From: a bacterium
GTDB lineage: Bacteria > Bacteroidota > Ignavibacteria > UBA10030
Reading direction: 5' to 3'
Length of the DNA: 64,000 nt
Assembly (NCBI GenBank): GCA_043803945.1
Contig: JAZDJN010000101.1
Span: forward strand, 12,790-76,789
Under the pieces are notes generated by a model. The model had not been told where the DNA came from. It was given only the letters and a program-made list of their open reading frames with translations, and ran no database searches. The position numbers and the translations under genes were made by a program. Positions 31,603 through 37,090 of the stretch are shown in pieces (within the stretch, counting starts at the first letter, position 1; every line of letters begins with the position of its first letter).

Positions 31603-32634
31603 TTATGAGGGAGTCAGGATAATCTTCCCAAACTGCTTTCCTGCTTCGACAATCTCGTGCGCTTCACGTACGGCATCAAGCGGCAGTACCCGATCGATGA
31701 CAGCTCTGAGTTTCCCCTGCTCTACAAATTTCAGGATGGAGACCAGATCTCCTTTCCGTCCCATGGTTGAACCTATGATCTGGAGCTGCTTATAAAAAAT
31801 ATAGCGCAAATCCGTTTTTGCCTCATAACCGGATGTGGCGCCGCACGTAATGAGCTTGCCTCCCTTTGCAAGCGATTTGATACTCTCCTCCCAGACTGCC
31901 TGCCCTACATGATCAATGATGACATCCACGCCGCGCTTGTCTGTGAGTTTTCGAATTTCCTGACCTACATGTTGATGCGTGTAAAGGATGACGTGATCCG
32001 CCCCGAGCATGAGAGTCTTTTTTGCTTTCTCCTCTGTGCTGGTTGTGGCAATCACCCTGGCACCGAATAATTTTGTAATCTGCACTGCCGCACTTCCAAC
32101 TCCACTGCCTGAGCCGACGACGAGCACATCCTGCCCGGGTTTCACATGGGCTTTCTCCACAATCATCTGCCACGCGGTGAGAAATACTAATCCGATCGCC
32201 GCTGCTTGCTCAAACGAGATCGCTGTGCTCAATGGTATCACATTCTTCCCGGGTACAGAGAGATACTCTGCATCGGCTCCATCCCGATGCTCGCCGATCA
32301 GGATATAGTCTTTGCACAAATTATCGTCGCCGTTGAGGCAATCCGCGCAGTGCCCACACGAGATCCCCTGAGCCACGATCACACGGTCACCCGTTTGCAC
32401 ATGGCGGACCGCAGCGCCTGTTTCAGCGACAATGCCTGCGGCATCCACGCCAGGGATCATCGGCAGCGGGATCTTTACACCAGGTAATCCCCGCCGGACC
32501 CAGAGATCCATGTGGTTGATGGACGTTGCCTTAACGTTGACGAGAACCTCGTCCGGTCGAATGGTTGGAGTGGGAATTTGTTCCAGGAGTAACTTCTCAA
32601 TGCCGCCATGCTCATGAATGCGAACGCATTTCAT
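31603..32634 (-). CDS. Zinc-binding medium-chain dehydrogenase / quinone oxidoreductase
   Basis: CGHCADC..C structural Zn site, GSGSGVG and CGATSG motifs. Confidence 0.92.
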   Translation of the reverse strand: MKCVRIHEHGGIEKLLLEQIPTPTIRPDEVLVNVKATSINHMDLWVRRGLPGVKIPLPMIPGVDAAGIVAETGAAVRHVQTGDRVIVAQGISCGHCADCLNGDDNLCKDYILIGEHRDGADAEYLSVPGKNVIPLSTAISFEQAAAIGLVFLTAWQMIVEKAHVKPGQDVLVVGSGSGVGSAAVQITKLFGARVIATTSTEEKAKKTLMLGADHVILYTHQHVGQEIRKLTDKRGVDVIIDHVGQAVWEESIKSLAKGGKLITCGATSGYEAKTDLRYIFYKQLQIIGSTMGRKGDLVSILKFVEQGKLRAVIDRVLPLDAVREAHEIVEAGKQFGKIILTPS

Positions 32635-32730: not shown

Positions 32731-33100
32731 AGTTCCCCGAGTGTCCGACTCGATTCAATGAATCGAGTCGAGACCTCGACGGATTCGGGGCTTCTGTCGG
32801 CTTGCCCCGACCTGTCCCGACTTGTCCCGATGCTTTATATCGGGATGCTTTATATCGGGATGCTTTTTATCGGGGGGATCTACTATGCACTACCTTTTCG
32901 CAGATCCCAAACAAAGACATTTTGGGATCACTGGCTCTTTTCTATCTGCTACCCAATACTCGATGAGTTCCCCGAGTGCCTGCCCCGAATTCTTTTTTCG
33001 GGGCTTCTGTCGGCTTGCCCCGACCTGTCCCGACTTGTCCCGACGTTTTATGTCGGGATGATCTATATCGGGATGCTTTTTATCGGGGGGATCTATCATG
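32731..33100. repeat. BIME/REPIN-like hairpin array, left of the GIY-YIG gene, with triple self-nested 25-nt elements
   Basis: Units gttccccgagtg..gtcggggatct and agatcccaaacaaagaca.tttgggatc; nested blocks at 32801-32875 and 33014-33088. Confidence 0.9.
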
Positions 33101-33216
33101 CGGATCAATGGTATAATTATGCTAACAACTCATGCCTTGAAATTAACTATCCCGTTTCATACTATTCACCACCAATCATTCGATATCCTCATCGCACCGA
33201 AAATCCAACAGGGGGT

Positions 33217-33512
33217 ATGCTATCAGCAAAGGATACTTCTACATTGTTTCAAACTACACAAGCACAACTCTCTATTGCGGATCCACTGTTGATCTTGACT
33301 CAAGGATCCGCCAGCACCGATCCGGTGAGGGAAGCAAATTCTCAGCAAAATATAACTGCAAATATCTTTTATACTATGAAGAATATGATACTCTCGAAGA
33401 GGCCCTCCTACGCGAAAAGAGGGTAAAGCGCTGGAACCGTGAGTGGAAAATGCGCTTGATCAAATCGATCAATCCAGATTTAGAAGACCTTTGGGAAAAA
33501 GAATGGCTATAG
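33217..33512 (+). pseudogene. GIY-YIG nuclease (stand-alone, ~98 aa) with a 1-nt frameshift after the start
   Basis: Missed by the ORF track. The frame from 33228 reads KGYFYIVSNYTSTTLYCGSTVDLDSRIRQHRSGEGSKFSAKYNCKYLLYYEEY...REKRVKRWNREWKMRLIKSINPDLEDL and has no in-frame ATG/GTG/TTG upstream; ATG 33217 joins if one A is added in gcaaagga. Confidence 0.85.
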
Positions 33513-33520
33513 CACAAACA

Positions 33521-33920
33521 AGTGTTCCCCGAGTGCCTTAGTCGGGGATCTATCATGCAGTGTAGTTCATTGGCCATTTGGCAGATCCCAAACAAAGACA
33601 CTTTGGGATCGCTGGCTCTTTTCTATCTACTACCCAACACTCGATGAGTTCCCCGAGCGCCTTAGTCGGGGATCTATCATGCAGTGGAGTTCATTGGCCA
33701 TTTGACAGATCCCAAACAAAGACATTTTGGGATCGCTGGCTCTTTTCTATCTGCTACCCAACACTCGATGAGTTCCCCGAGTGCCTGCCCCGAATTCTTT
33801 TTCGAGGCTTCTGTCGGCTTGCCCCGACCTGTCCCGACTTGTCCCGACGTTTTATATCGGGATGCTTTATATCGGGATGCTTTGTATCGGGGGGATCTAT
33901 CATGCAGTGTAGTTCAATGC
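33521..33920. repeat. BIME/REPIN-like hairpin array, right of the GIY-YIG gene (~125-bp tandem units)
   Basis: gttccccgag(t/c)gccttagtcggggatctatcatgcagt...cagatcccaaacaaagaca.tttgggatcgctggctcttttctatct.ctacccaacactcgatga occurs twice, then a third copy carries the nested block at 33818-33892. Confidence 0.92.
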
Positions 33921-33985
33921 TGTTTGATTTTTTTCTAAATCGGTTTTAAGGAAAGTTCCAGACCAAAGAGGTGTGGATTGGTAAT

Positions 33986-36900
33986 TTACTTCGCTTCTGA
34001 GAGGCCGAAGAGATCCTGGTCGAATTTGAAGCTGAGGGAGACGAATGGGCCTTTGCTCCAGAGGGAATAGTCAATAAGATCCTGCTCTTTATAGCCCTTG
34101 AAGTTGTAGCCGGTGGTGAGGCGCAGATTCTTTGCAACGGCGTAGCCAAGCTCTACACTGTACCCGTTCAGCAGGTCATTCGCTTCAATCTGATGCAAGC
34201 CGCGATATTCTGCTCCGACACTCCAGGCCTCGCTGATGTTATAGTTGGCGTGGATGAGTCCAAAGAATGTATGACTGCTCGAGGCAAACGTTGGCGATTC
34301 TTCATCTGAAAGTTTGAATGCCGTTTTAATTGCGAGTTCGAATCTCCGTACCGGTTCAGTATATGCATGGAGTGAAAAGATCGTGGCCGAATTATCAATG
34401 TAGGGCTGGAGGTAGCGATTTGCATCGCCCTTGATCTCAAACTTCGCGATGGCATTGAAATCGTTCGACTCGGTCGGGCGATAGGCAAGCCCGGTAATCA
34501 AATGAGAGAGTTTCCGGTAGCCTGAGGACTTCGTCGAGATGTCATTAGCCAGCCGATATTTAAAGATGAAACCAAAATCGTTATGGAAGCGGTAATCGCT
34601 TGCTATAAAATAATTAATTTTTCGACTGATATAATCGTTAGCGAACTCAACCTTTGCACTTGCCTTCACTGCGGACTTCGGCAAATATTCCAAACCGCCG
34701 GAGATTGCATAATGATCCTGCGTGCCGATCTCACCGACACGCTTAATAAAGCTCTTCGCTTGCTCGAAACTTGCATTGCCGGAAAGGTCATCGGTGATTT
34801 TCACGGTATTCCTCAAACCAATGCTTCCCATATTGCGCTCGCCGGAGATCAAATTCCCGATCTCATATTTTGCAAAAACCTCTGTACCCTGGAATACTGT
34901 CGATTTAATATTAACACCGGTCAGAGAGCCGCCGCCTTCAACAAATTTATGCTGGCCGGCGATGGAAATCGATTGAATCGGTCTGTACTCCGCGATGACT
35001 GACGTGCCGTTGGGCCGTGCAAGATCCTGTTCCGATGCCAGGTTTCGTTCATGCTCGAGGCCAACACTGAAGCGGTTGGAAATCTGGAATGCGGAAGTCA
35101 GCGCTGCGAGCGAAGAGTGCGTTGCATCTTTCACTGTCGTCGAGTCAAGTGTCTTCGATTGGAGATCCTCAAAGCGGAACTTCCCCGTCCACCAGTCTGT
35201 CACCTTTGCCTCGAATGCCCCGAGCAGAGAGGTCCACTCCATCTTGCCCATAGGAAGATTTTGCGAAGCTTGATAATATTCCGTATGGATCTTGGTACCT
35301 TTGGAGATCTCGTAGGCACCCGTCAGGCCATATTTTTGAGAACCGAGTTCACGCCGTCCACCCGACTGGGTAATATTAAAGAATCCCACATCGACATTGC
35401 GATAGTACCCTTTAAGATTCAATCCTGTCGCGAGCATGGCATTCGATTCAACCTTATAGGCAATCCCGCTGCCATTGATGTTTGATGACTGGCCGAACTC
35501 GCTGAGAATGGAAAACTGGTCGTTGACCTGCAGTTTTGCATCAACTCCGAAGAGATAATAGTTCTTGGGTTCCTGTTGTTCTGTGATGCCGGTGAGTCCG
35601 ACGTGGATACTCTTCCCAAAATTTCGTTCAACCCGGCCGCCGGCAACATAGGAGCTTGCACCGTAGGTTTTCGCTTCGAAATGCACAACGATAAAGATGG
35701 GATTACCGGCAACATCGATGGCAGGCATCGGCTGTTTGAAGAAGAGCGAACCCTGTTCATAGTCGATGTCATAATCCTGGAATCGTGTCATCAGATCCCG
35801 CCTGATGAGAACCTCGGAGTGGAACCGGTCGCGTGTCTCAATCGTCACCTGCTCGGAGCCGGGAGTGATGGTGGTGTATCCAAGGAAATAGAAGCCGGAA
35901 ATCCCTTCCCCCCTCTTCTCGACCTGAACCTGCTTACGATCCGTGAGAGATCCGAAGCCACCGACCTTCCACTCATCATCCTGTAGGTTTGCTTTCACAC
36001 CATTCAGGGTTCTGTTATAAGCGGTAAATTCCTGTTTCGTGAGATCAGAGGTAAAGTCACCCAGGTGGATGTAGCTCATGTTCTTTTCGATCTTCGCGAA
36101 GAAGTTCCGATTCGTCTGTGCATCGTAGAAAAGCATGCTATTATCGCCATAGATCGTATAGAGATAATCGGGATCGACCTGGCGGAAGAACTTCGAATTA
36201 TCCCGACGATCGGTGTCCACTGACAACTGAAGCAGATAACCATCGCCGACGGTTCCACGGGCGTAGGCTGCCAGCCGTCCATGACGATTGAACTTCTCCG
36301 GGTAGGCATCGAACGGTGTTACACCGGTCTTGTCACCTTTGGCCTCGTAGTATCCTCCCGTGCCGGTGGCAAGACCAACAAGTGAAAATTGCTCTATCGG
36401 CGTTGTCAAAAGCAGATCTGAGCTTGCTTCTAAGTCGGAATATTTTGCTCTAAACACGATCATCCGGGGTGATGATCCCGCTTGAAACTCAAAGTGTGCT
36501 TCCCCTTTGACCAAATGCAACTGCAATCCTGGAGCATTAGGATCAAGATCCTTCGCAATAAGGATTCCACCGCTGTCCGCAGCCAATGTGACATTGATAT
36601 CCCGATCGATTTGAGCATTCCACCTATCATACATCAGCACAAGTCCATTGATTTTCGATTTTCCATCTGCACTTATGCTATTTTTTTCGAATTGGATTTG
36701 AAGCTCGACCGGTGAACCAAAGATGTGAATGTTTCGAATTTGAGATGCTACGTATTGACCAGTCCCTTCATAAAGCTTCAGTTCATATTGGACGGGACCT
36801 TCAGGAACGGTAACACCGATGAACTCTAACGCGCCATCAATTCTCACCTCAGACTTTTGTACGATTTTACCGTTGACCAAAAGAGAGGCAAAATGCCCAA

Positions 36901-37090
36901 TAGGAGCGGTTGCTATGACAGCTTGACTTCGAACATCACTTTTCAAACTATCTGGCGGATACGTGATAACGAATTGACTAAACGTCATAGGAGCGATTGT
37001 ACACAGCGCAACCAGGACAAAGAGAATTCTTACAACATCTCTTTGTCTGCTGGTGACCCAATTGCTATATGTATGGCTATGCGCTTGCAC
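33986..37090 (-). CDS. Predicted large outer-membrane beta-barrel protein with N-terminal Ig-like domains (putative usher-like translocator)
   Basis: Signal peptide; Ig-like start (ISADGKS..); core GRLAAYARG..YTIYGDNS..YNRTLNG..DYDIDYEQGSLFFKQP; about 500 aa of alternating amphipathic strands ending GPFVSLSFKFD. Confidence 0.75.
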   Translation of the reverse strand: MQAHSHTYSNWVTSRQRDVVRILFVLVALCTIAPMTFSQFVITYPPDSLKSDVRSQAVIATAPIGHFASLLVNGKIVQKSEVRIDGALEFIGVTVPEGPVQYELKLYEGTGQYVASQIRNIHIFGSPVELQIQFEKNSISADGKSKINGLVLMYDRWNAQIDRDINVTLAADSGGILIAKDLDPNAPGLQLHLVKGEAHFEFQAGSSPRMIVFRAKYSDLEASSDLLLTTPIEQFSLVGLATGTGGYYEAKGDKTGVTPFDAYPEKFNRHGRLAAYARGTVGDGYLLQLSVDTDRRDNSKFFRQVDPDYLYTIYGDNSMLFYDAQTNRNFFAKIEKNMSYIHLGDFTSDLTKQEFTAYNRTLNGVKANLQDDEWKVGGFGSLTDRKQVQVEKRGEGISGFYFLGYTTITPGSEQVTIETRDRFHSEVLIRRDLMTRFQDYDIDYEQGSLFFKQPMPAIDVAGNPIFIVVHFEAKTYGASSYVAGGRVERNFGKSIHVGLTGITEQQEPKNYYLFGVDAKLQVNDQFSILSEFGQSSNINGSGIAYKVESNAMLATGLNLKGYYRNVDVGFFNITQSGGRRELGSQKYGLTGAYEISKGTKIHTEYYQASQNLPMGKMEWTSLLGAFEAKVTDWWTGKFRFEDLQSKTLDSTTVKDATHSSLAALTSAFQISNRFSVGLEHERNLASEQDLARPNGTSVIAEYRPIQSISIAGQHKFVEGGGSLTGVNIKSTVFQGTEVFAKYEIGNLISGERNMGSIGLRNTVKITDDLSGNASFEQAKSFIKRVGEIGTQDHYAISGGLEYLPKSAVKASAKVEFANDYISRKINYFIASDYRFHNDFGFIFKYRLANDISTKSSGYRKLSHLITGLAYRPTESNDFNAIAKFEIKGDANRYLQPYIDNSATIFSLHAYTEPVRRFELAIKTAFKLSDEESPTFASSSHTFFGLIHANYNISEAWSVGAEYRGLHQIEANDLLNGYSVELGYAVAKNLRLTTGYNFKGYKEQDLIDYSLWSKGPFVSLSFKFDQDLFGLSEAK

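Follow-up and report, generated by a model that had tools for sequence, protein, structure and literature searches.

A self-nesting 25-nt hairpin unit in an Ignavibacteria genome, a probable very small mobile element

Introduction

The usual view of mobile DNA is that it requires two ends or more and a length of some tens of bases. The small dispersed repeats (SDRs) of the Nostocaceae are reportedly 21-27 nt long and are said to nest, and they are the closest precedent in kind for the element considered here, E, a 25-nt hairpin unit found three times, each time nested in itself three levels deep, in a stretch of 64,000 nt from a genome of the Ignavibacteria. This stretch, the window, is G000:C101:12790-76789, where G000 is the source genome (5.54 Mb in 118 contigs, 46.5% G+C), C followed by a number is a contig of G000 and L followed by a number is an extracted DNA stretch. 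With its block-wise exact insertion, self-nesting, bias towards hairpins, strand-specific fold and wide distribution, E is probably a non-autonomous, very small mobile DNA element.

Other systems that combine small hairpins with mobility have been described. The insertion sequence (IS) IS1397 inserts into the loop of the palindromic units of E. coli, and IS of this type make target duplications. The attC sites of integrons carry R'' and R' boxes (RYYYAAC and GTTRRRY) around an imperfect palindrome of 57-141 nt. Passages of papers citing Elhai et al (2008, Genome Res 18:1484) give the length of SDR5 as 21 nt, place it precisely inside the palindrome HIP1 and refer to SDRs as proposed mobile elements; according to a passage of PMC5861425, SDRs are reported only in the Nostocaceae. 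Repetitive extragenic palindromes (REPs) are defined, in the sections of PMC6006769 devoted to them, by a GT[AG]G tetranucleotide 5' of the hairpin foot, and are described there as species-specific; a HUH-Y1 enzyme is believed to process them in the form of single-stranded DNA (ssDNA) (sections of PMC6006769 and PMC3116915). The same sections of PMC6006769 have TnpA-IS200 and TnpA-REP using the tetranucleotide 5' of the hairpin foot as a guide, and describe for the IS200/IS605 family hairpins that are recognised by their structure, a guide tetranucleotide that reads both the left-end flank and the final bases at the right end, and the absence of duplication. Reference titles in PMC3116915 name extragenic palindromes as the targets of IS1397 and like IS.

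Results

Each nest consists of three concentric units

E is made up of a CYTG tag, or tail, a 7-bp stem (YCCCGAT/ATCGGGR) and a T-rich 7-nt loop, which together give 25 nt; alternatively the length can be taken as 24 nt plus one repeated base. The nests lie in a non-coding 1.35-kb stretch of short repeats flanked by minus-strand open reading frames (ORFs) at 31603-32634 and 33986-37090. Each of the three blocks (Table 1) reads as three 10-mers, CTTGCCCCGA, CCTGTCCCGA and CTTGTCCCGA, followed by three 15-mers, TGCTTTATATCGGGA and variants, which end in TCGGGA, TCGGGA and TCGGGG in that order. The consensus is CYTGYCCCGA for the left halves and TGnTTnTATCGGGR for the right halves, and the halves pair by level, with C-G in the outer and T-A in the inner one. 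Each block is thus three 25-nt units nested concentrically. A sequence-only reading of the window had already placed blocks of the order AAA-BBB at exactly these positions, and had set that order apart from the ABABAB that tandem duplication of the unit would leave; repeat finder, pattern match and fold agree with it, and the head-to-tail order of whole units is absent from the blocks.

Tandem Repeats Finder resolves every block into a 10-nt array abutting a 15-nt array. The innermost 25-mer, written as CYTGYCCCGAYGN5TRTCGGGR and allowed up to two mismatches, has three matches in the window and none in each of 100 dinucleotide shuffles. Folded as ssDNA, the 75-mer forms three concentric stems (-12.9 kcal/mol, z = -3.6, with none of 200 shuffles equally good), and a single E forms the 4-nt tail, 7-bp stem and 7-nt loop (-6.1 kcal/mol, z = -5.1). 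Any two nests are one to four substitutions apart at each level; at the apical pair the T-A has become a compensated C-G in nest 2, with C.A as the intermediate in nest 3.

The nests are carried by a larger repeat

The host of the nests is H1, a repeat with a period of 124 nt that opens with the hairpin GTTCCCCGA-(9 nt)-TCGGGGATCT and takes the nest in the 3' arm, at TCGG^GG. A second insertion point lies in the loop of the same hairpin, after GTG, and is occupied by an E-like unit, X, in all three filled window copies; the two empty copies are vacant at both the X and the nest positions. A fourth triple, composite in the same way and more decayed, is found 2 kb upstream of the window on the opposite strand, at C101:10,7xx. 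The shared position in H1, the X unit and differences at the level of substitutions indicate that the nest formed once and was then multiplied with H1, which makes the three window nests paralogous copies of a single one. The element is therefore present in three copies, as had been proposed, and not as three independent insertions. The proposal that H1 copies near 33541 and 33666 are the empty counterparts also holds in part: GTCGG^GGATCT is unbroken in both, but their loop is GTGCCTTAG, as against GTGCTTCTG in the filled copies stripped of their inserts. The latter loop is matched exactly by H1 copies elsewhere in G000.

As a whole, positions 32732-33930 form a five-copy array of this multi-hairpin repeat of about 124 nt, with three copies filled and two empty; Tandem Repeats Finder reports 33524-33786 as 2.1 copies with a period of 124 nt. 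The first hairpin of H1 (GTTC + CCCCGA + 9-nt loop + TCGGGG) is itself E-like, sharing stem and loop and differing in the 4-nt prefix, and the core hairpin is shared by further families (TGTCTCA-CCCGA... and GTCATT-CCCGA...). Within the array is also an ORF with a GIY-YIG domain (PF01541) at 33228-33452, in a frame that stays open up to the stop at 33510-33512. The match has an E-value of 1.1e-12 and covers profile positions 15-77 for the scanned part, and in the whole-genome search positions 1-77 in a 121-aa open frame. GIY-YIG genes were considered as mobilising candidates and dropped, 2 of the 16 matches in G000 lying within 1 kb of a CCCGA-N9-TCGGG hairpin.

Table 1. Positions of the nests, of unit X and of the H1 copies in the window.
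Feature	Positions	Strand	Description
H1 copy 1, 5' part	32732-32800	+	GTTCCCCGAGTG ... CTTCTGTCGG; nest at TCGG^GG of the hairpin 3' arm
X position upstream of nest 1	32744-32790	+	47 nt, rearranged or expanded
Nest 1	32801-32875	+	outer 32801-32810 + 32861-32875; middle 32811-32820 + 32846-32860; inner 32821-32845
H1 copy 2, 5' part	32967-33013	+	X within
X, E-like 25-nt unit	32979-33003	+	CCTG + CCCCGA + 9-nt loop + TCGGGG; 10 nt upstream of nest 2
Nest 2	33014-33088	+	architecture as nest 1; inner unit with compensated apical pair GAC...GTC
H1, empty site	33524-33647	+	TCGG^GG at 33545/33546
H1, empty site	33648-33771	+	TCGG^GG at 33669/33670
H1 copy 5, 5' part	33772-33817	+	X within; runs into nest 3
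X upstream of nest 3	33784-33807	+	24 nt, decayed: one T fewer, GGGG to GAGG
Nest 3	33818-33892	+	architecture as nest 1; inner unit with GAC...ATC mismatch, intermediate between nests 1 and 2

Empty, single, double and triple forms occur in one genome

In G000, both strands together contain 287 CCCGA...TCGGG pairs with loops of 3-14 nt, of which 126 have an N9 loop and every other loop length accounts for 9-28. When nested units are peeled away one layer at a time, 29 outermost sites are left, of which 21 parse as one unit, 3 as two and 5 as three; three of the apparent singles (two on C81 and one on C99) are the inner units of doubles with one extra A. Both INTERMEDIATES and empty sites are found within this same genome. 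At the H1-type site TCGG^GG the forms make a graded series: 24 sites are empty, three hold one unit (C64 twice and C87), one holds two (C27) and four hold three (C101), and the two units on C27 match those of the triple's outer and middle levels. X is present alongside one level (C87) and three levels (C101) and absent alongside one (C64) and two (C27), and since it comes and goes irrespective of the depth of the nest, the two insertion points were hit independently.

Uninterrupted paralogues in which the flanks are joined were found for 15 of the 29 outermost sites, with up to 25 per site. Removal of 25, 50 or 75 nt from filled sites restores the host, and base-for-base alignment with empty sites was obtained in six further repeat families. 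Among the families with exact insertions are GGTCGGGAGC-loop-GCTCCC, the perfect hairpin ATTCCCGCG-AA-CGCGG^GAAT, and the repeats of small cassettes, where C40 was compared with C5 and C99. Host bases are neither gained nor lost at the insertions, save for sliding of the border by one or two identical bases. At C101:8947 three left halves are followed by one right half, beside a paralogue with full units; this array is a secondary deletion.

The claim of a non-autonomous mobile unit of 25 nt, made from the window, called for one- and two-level intermediates and for a tabulation of empty against filled sites. Both intermediates exist, at unrelated sites as well as at the same host site, and the G000 paralogues differ by exact blocks of 25, 50 or 75 nt, so that the claim is supported by the graded forms and exact blocks, and also by the occurrence of E in many genomes. 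The accompanying claim that no target is duplicated is borne out beyond 1 nt; a 1-nt direct repeat, or an ambiguity of the boundary by that amount, accompanies insertion.

The hairpin of E is conserved and specific to one strand

The 5' tetranucleotide of E reads CYTG in all copies, and the base of the stem, YCCCG/CGGGR, is invariant in G000. Above it two apical pairs covary in that genome (AT/AT, AC/GT, AA/TT, CC/GG and CT/AG), both being Watson-Crick in 19 of 25 cases. The closing pair, counted over 123 copies, is T-A in 57, C-G in 35, T.G in 25 and C.A in 6, from which it follows that the pair is kept, with an asymmetry between the strands: the T.G wobble is tolerated and A.C is avoided, which identifies the strand as written as the one that folds. 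The positions that the search pattern leaves free also show a preference, the loop being T-rich and the fourth free position being T in 106 of the 123 copies. No Rfam family matched E; the sole match, to RF01097, was below threshold and due to chance (22 vs 43 bits).

A conserved intergenic motif found upstream of genes, TTCTTGGCG-nCTTG-CCTGCCCCGA(loop)TCGGGGGCGGTTCA, starts like E and likewise has no match in Rfam. Copies of it are present in G000 at C33:45087, C48:69116, C93:2860, C114:13713 and C114:21783 (L230-L234) and in metagenomes in L139, L142, L162, L193 and L217. L139 and two of the five copies in G000 have TTTTTCAGCAACCT about 40 nt further on, and in metagenomes the motif carries E nested after CCCCGA.

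Insertion sites

E is preferentially found inside other hairpins or at their edge, namely in REP-like palindromes, in the H1 hairpin and in repeats that separate small gene cassettes, and also in its own hairpin, where it enters either just after CCCGA or in the 3' arm at TCGG^GG and so gives rise to the AAA-BBB nests. Host hairpins carry many of the copies at their apex. In a Terriglobia record, for instance, GTAGCGCCGCTC-TA-[E]-G-GAGCGGCGCTAC is a REP-like palindrome with a GTAG tag; TCCGCC-GA-[E]-A-GGCGGA and GTCCC-GA-[E]-A-GGGAC are of the same kind. Perfect flanking stems of at least 7 bp surround 11 of 127 copies, compared with 0.7% of 2,540 random positions, and stems of at least 5 bp surround 22 of 127, compared with 5.9%. 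The preference for hairpins is real, but by this strict measure of the stem it concerns a minority of copies.

On the 5' side a purine is found at -1 in 113 of 127 copies and a C at -3 in 62 of 127, and the commonest trinucleotide is CAG (15 of 119). In 75 of 119 copies, against an expectation of 52.3, E ends in the same base as the one that precedes it; one in 100000 shuffles reaches this number, related copies not being independent of each other. Like the last base, the base before E avoids the A.C combination with position 5 of E, and shows no covariation with the Y in the tag.

The copies are mostly intergenic and often lie just past the ends of genes, in variable orientation to their neighbours; among those no more than 150 nt from a gene end, 32 run antisense and 15 sense. 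Some are in long palindromic repeats between small, mostly co-oriented genes, in G000 (C40 and C101:1-11 kb) and in the Melioribacteraceae-labelled stretches L034 and L048. Two regions of G000, C101:1-12800 just upstream of the window (L131) and C40:44656-54656, are cassette-like arrays of small genes set in a mosaic of hairpin repeats, several of which hold E. The genes of L131 include a BrnT toxin and nucleotidyltransferase/HEPN pairs as judged by Pfam, and those of C40 are ParE-like by eye only. These arrays look like integron cassette arrays, and an integron is not established: the integron-integrase model reaches at best 131.9 bits in G000 against a cut-off of 265, and all 14 control genomes match it too. 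The tyrosine-recombinase matches to this model, on C5, C65, C41, C45 and C70, are all below the curated cut-off.

E is present in several phyla

The pattern CYTGYCCCGATGN5TATCGGGR, with at most one mismatch, matches 21 times in G000 and is found in 15 of 60 relatives, 12 of 36 from the same family and 3 of 24 from other families of the order; the reversed pattern, used as a control, has no match in all 61 genomes. A scan of named species, with one genome per species and exact matching, gave at least 114 stretches from several phyla. In a hand tally by title of the 114 matches listed, 29 are of Ignavibacteria/Melioribacter type with a further 3 labelled 'Chlorobiota', 20 are Acidobacteriota/Terriglobia, 19 of Bacteroidota type, 8 of Verrucomicrobiota type, 8 Balneolaceae/Rhodohalobacter, 6 of Planctomycetota type, 5 Poribacteria, 4 of Proteobacteria/Desulfobacterales type, 3 KSB1, 3 cyanobacteria, 2 of Clostridia type, 1 Zixibacteria and 3 unclassified. 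Two of the three cyanobacterial matches lie in long open frames. Five of the matches, those labelled Poribacteria, together with a few others in long open frames, are probably chance or coding sequence and not E; the remaining matches across phyla are not due to chance, because the positions left free by the pattern are strongly structured. E is widespread and not local to this genome.

In metagenomes, where two consecutive left halves were taken as the criterion, 89 stretches were found, 77 of them distinct. By eye these contain many balanced doubles (L153, L166), triples (L144, L158) and one nest of four left and four right halves (L173). The halves in L173 are of a variant of about 23 nt (CCTGTCCCGA + TGAATATCGTGGA), which also forms partial arrays in L200 and L184. 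In L080 and L093 nesting takes place at another position of the loop, after CCCGATG, and L035 and L086 have a tandem E-E arrangement. A phage vehicle is not indicated, E being found in one viral contig only.

Candidate enzymes

G000 has 12 matches to Y1_Tnp, of which about 11 are divergent proteins resembling REP-associated tyrosine transposases (RAYTs), with pairwise identities of 20-58%; about 11 RAYT-like Y1 genes is an unusually high count for one genome. Five of these genes (C66:7342-7950, C16:24954-25352, C62:20005-20592, C65:26953-27513 and C72:16424-17032) are flanked by multi-copy palindromes of their own, which fall into three families, AGAAGTCTGTCTTCTTAC..., GAACCTTCGGAAGGTT... and CTAGCCCGAAGGC....

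The Y1_Tnp protein encoded on C31 carries the Y---Q--HH signature of 'subclass 1.2' of the TnpA-Y1 proteins, members of which are described, in the passages of the literature that deal with them, as low-copy and generally without the typical terminal hairpin structures of IS200. Homologues of the C31 protein are present in four of five E-bearing genomes of other phyla that were tried, with a weak match in the fifth. Neither Y1_Tnp nor the C31-type protein was retained as a partner of E, since their presence does not separate genomes with E from those without it and the genes are not flanked by E. Around E, the ORF clusters in the 114 named stretches listed are for secreted proteins with type IX secretion system sorting tails, ABC transporters and housekeeping functions, and share no nuclease or recombinase.

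Discussion

E belongs among the very small mobile repeats of the REP-like or SDR-like kind. No description of it was found in the literature searched, and it is set apart from the SDRs of the Nostocaceae by the way these are described in citing papers. Like them it is very small, dispersed and inserted as a block; unlike them, in a comparison made by description and not by sequence, it is found in genomes labelled Ignavibacteria, Bacteroidota, Acidobacteriota, Verrucomicrobiota and Planctomycetota. With the REPs and their RAYT enzymes, as far as the cited sections describe them, it shares a short extragenic hairpin, a conserved 5' tetranucleotide, many copies and the lack of autonomy. The tag is CYTG rather than the GT[AG]G of those sections, E does not flank a cognate Y1 or RAYT gene in G000, its sequence is common to several phyla whereas the REPs of PMC6006769 are described there as species-specific, and it enters REP-like palindromes as a guest. 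It also occurs singly or in concentric nests of one orientation, whereas a REPIN is an inverted doublet of REPs.

In common with IS200/IS605 elements as outlined in the sections cited above, E inserts without target duplication beyond the 1-nt ambiguity, and a guide that reads both ends would fit the correlation of the base before E with its last base. Those elements have two different ends, each with a hairpin of its own, and a defined target of 4-5 nt, whereas E has a single hairpin and a weak preference for its flanks. The choice of extragenic palindromes as targets recalls IS1397, as judged by reference titles, and such IS are full-length and protein-coding, unlike the 25 non-coding nucleotides of E. 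Miniature inverted-repeat transposable elements (MITEs) are likewise non-autonomous, repeated and capable of nesting, but typically exceed 50-100 bp and have terminal inverted repeats and a target-site duplication, whereas E, at 25 nt, starts with the unpaired CYTG and has only its stem. An attC site is not what is seen either: by inspection E lacks R'' and R' boxes and a palindrome of that type, and it is a guest within the palindromic repeats between cassettes.

The arrangement in the window probably arose as follows. A first E would have inserted into the 3' arm of an H1 hairpin, the next into the loop of that unit, and the last into the loop of the unit before it; X would have entered the loop of H1, and the composite H1 would then have multiplied to give the three copies in the window and the fourth 2 kb upstream. 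With lower confidence, it may be suggested that an enzyme acting in trans excises or copies E as ssDNA and pastes it into hairpin-forming DNA that is transiently single-stranded, which would be its natural target and would include the loop of E itself. Such a putative enzyme would recognise the folded hairpin and the 5' tag, the strand with the T.G wobbles would be the active one, and a nuclease-ligase of the HUH-Y1 (IS200/RAYT) type that acts on a single strand would be the most plausible candidate. In a version with a single hairpin, one guide might read the last base of the target and the last base of E itself, which would explain the 1-nt repeat.

A number of observations weigh against a mobile element moved in this way. 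Units at unrelated sites of G000 differ in their loops and identical units are confined to copies of larger repeats, so that there is no sign of recent transposition in G000 and the present spread is by hitch-hiking. When orthologous empty sites were sought between congeners (G052/G005 and G032/G060), only paralogous repeats matched. On the strict measure, 105 of 127 copies are outside a perfect hairpin of at least 5 bp. About 9 chance matches would be expected in the 1.2e12 positions of the named-species scan (our own arithmetic, for uniform base composition), and the Poribacteria-labelled stretches (L041, L059, L091, L106 and L120) hold five orthologous exact matches in a conserved long open frame. 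Some metagenome arrays are unbalanced, with two left and three right halves in L171 and L187 and four left and two right in L192, which shows that slippage or deletion acts on nests afterwards. As for the enzyme, Y1_Tnp is present in all 15 relatives with E and also in 37 of the 45 without it. Of the 12 Y1_Tnp genes in G000, 11 have neither E nor a CCCGA..TCGGG hairpin within 2.5 kb and the twelfth has an unrelated hairpin, and the repeats that flank the five RAYT-like genes belong to families other than E. The 2.5-kb flanks of nine regions around 10 of 11 homologues of the C31 protein, from four genomes of other phyla, contain no E, and in the 114 named stretches listed no family of enzymes is seen repeatedly at distances of up to about 4 kb from E.

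A transposase could be dispensed with if insertion were templated, a nascent strand switching to another E at a 1-nt microhomology, copying 25 nt and switching back, so that the spread of E would be a by-product of hairpin processing. The excess of copies in which the base before E repeats its last base is consistent with such switching, as are sites at hairpins, where forks stall, and the lack of an enzyme in the Y1 flanks of G000, the named stretches and the flanks of the C31 homologues. One homologous base is, however, a slender guide for two precise switches that keep the 25-nt borders constant in many phyla, the conservation of stem base and tag across phyla points to sequence-specific recognition, and donor loops would be copied faithfully, yet they differ between unrelated sites; templated insertion is thought unlikely. 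That E is mainly a functional module under selection, a protein-binding or an RNA-stabilising or terminator hairpin, moved by recombination between repeats, would account for the constraint on nearly all of its 25 positions across phyla and for a mostly intergenic location, often past gene ends and with an excess of antisense copies, and the conserved motif found ahead of several genes, whose related hairpin also opens with CYTG-CCCCGA, fits this too. Recombination leaves unexplained the exact presence or absence of 25 nt in unrelated hosts and nesting to as many as four levels, the orientation to neighbouring genes is not fixed and there is no Rfam family match, which together make this explanation unlikely too, and a function of E alongside mobility is possible.

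Very improbable is the origin of the blocks by two separate slippage expansions, of a 10-mer and of a 15-mer, that reached equal copy number by chance. The two adjacent arrays reported by Tandem Repeats Finder, the unbalanced metagenome arrays and the three left halves and one right half at C101:8947 speak for it, and some metagenome nests have indeed been reshaped by slippage or deletion; separate slippage of the two halves had been named beforehand as what could overturn the mobile unit. But left and right halves pair level by level, forms with no, one, two and three levels occupy one host site, and the complete 25-mer stands alone at unrelated sites and in other phyla; slippage at this locus cannot explain a unit that recurs in many other genomes. 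Misassembly of a repeat-rich region is hardly credible: G000 is in 118 contigs and the region is a mosaic of repeats, yet the three nests differ by substitutions, each is shorter than a read, and the same architecture is found in independent assemblies of other organisms.

Our preferred reading is accordingly still that of a non-autonomous mobile element. A bolder version, which we regard as tentative and somewhat doubtful, is that E founds an undescribed class of transposable elements of 24-25 nt that crosses phyla and homes to extruded hairpins, its own loop included, perhaps moved by an orphan HUH-Y1 protein for which the 'subclass 1.2' TnpA-Y1 protein of C31 in G000 would be the candidate. 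If this were true, E would be the smallest transposon known outside the cyanobacterial SDRs and would give the 'subclass 1.2' TnpA-Y1 proteins a function. More generally, a unit of 25 nt with one hairpin, exact insertion, self-nesting and nearly one sequence in several phyla would mark the lower bound of size for transposable elements and rank among the smallest mobile elements known. E would also be a compact substrate with which to find its enzyme, possibly an orphan HUH-Y1 protein, and the series of no, one, two and three units at one site makes stepwise insertion directly testable. Nests of this kind look like tandem arrays and are misread by repeat finders as variable-number tandem repeats. 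In the genomes that carry it, such a unit adds length to REP-like palindromes, to terminators and to the repeats that separate gene cassettes, and remodels them.

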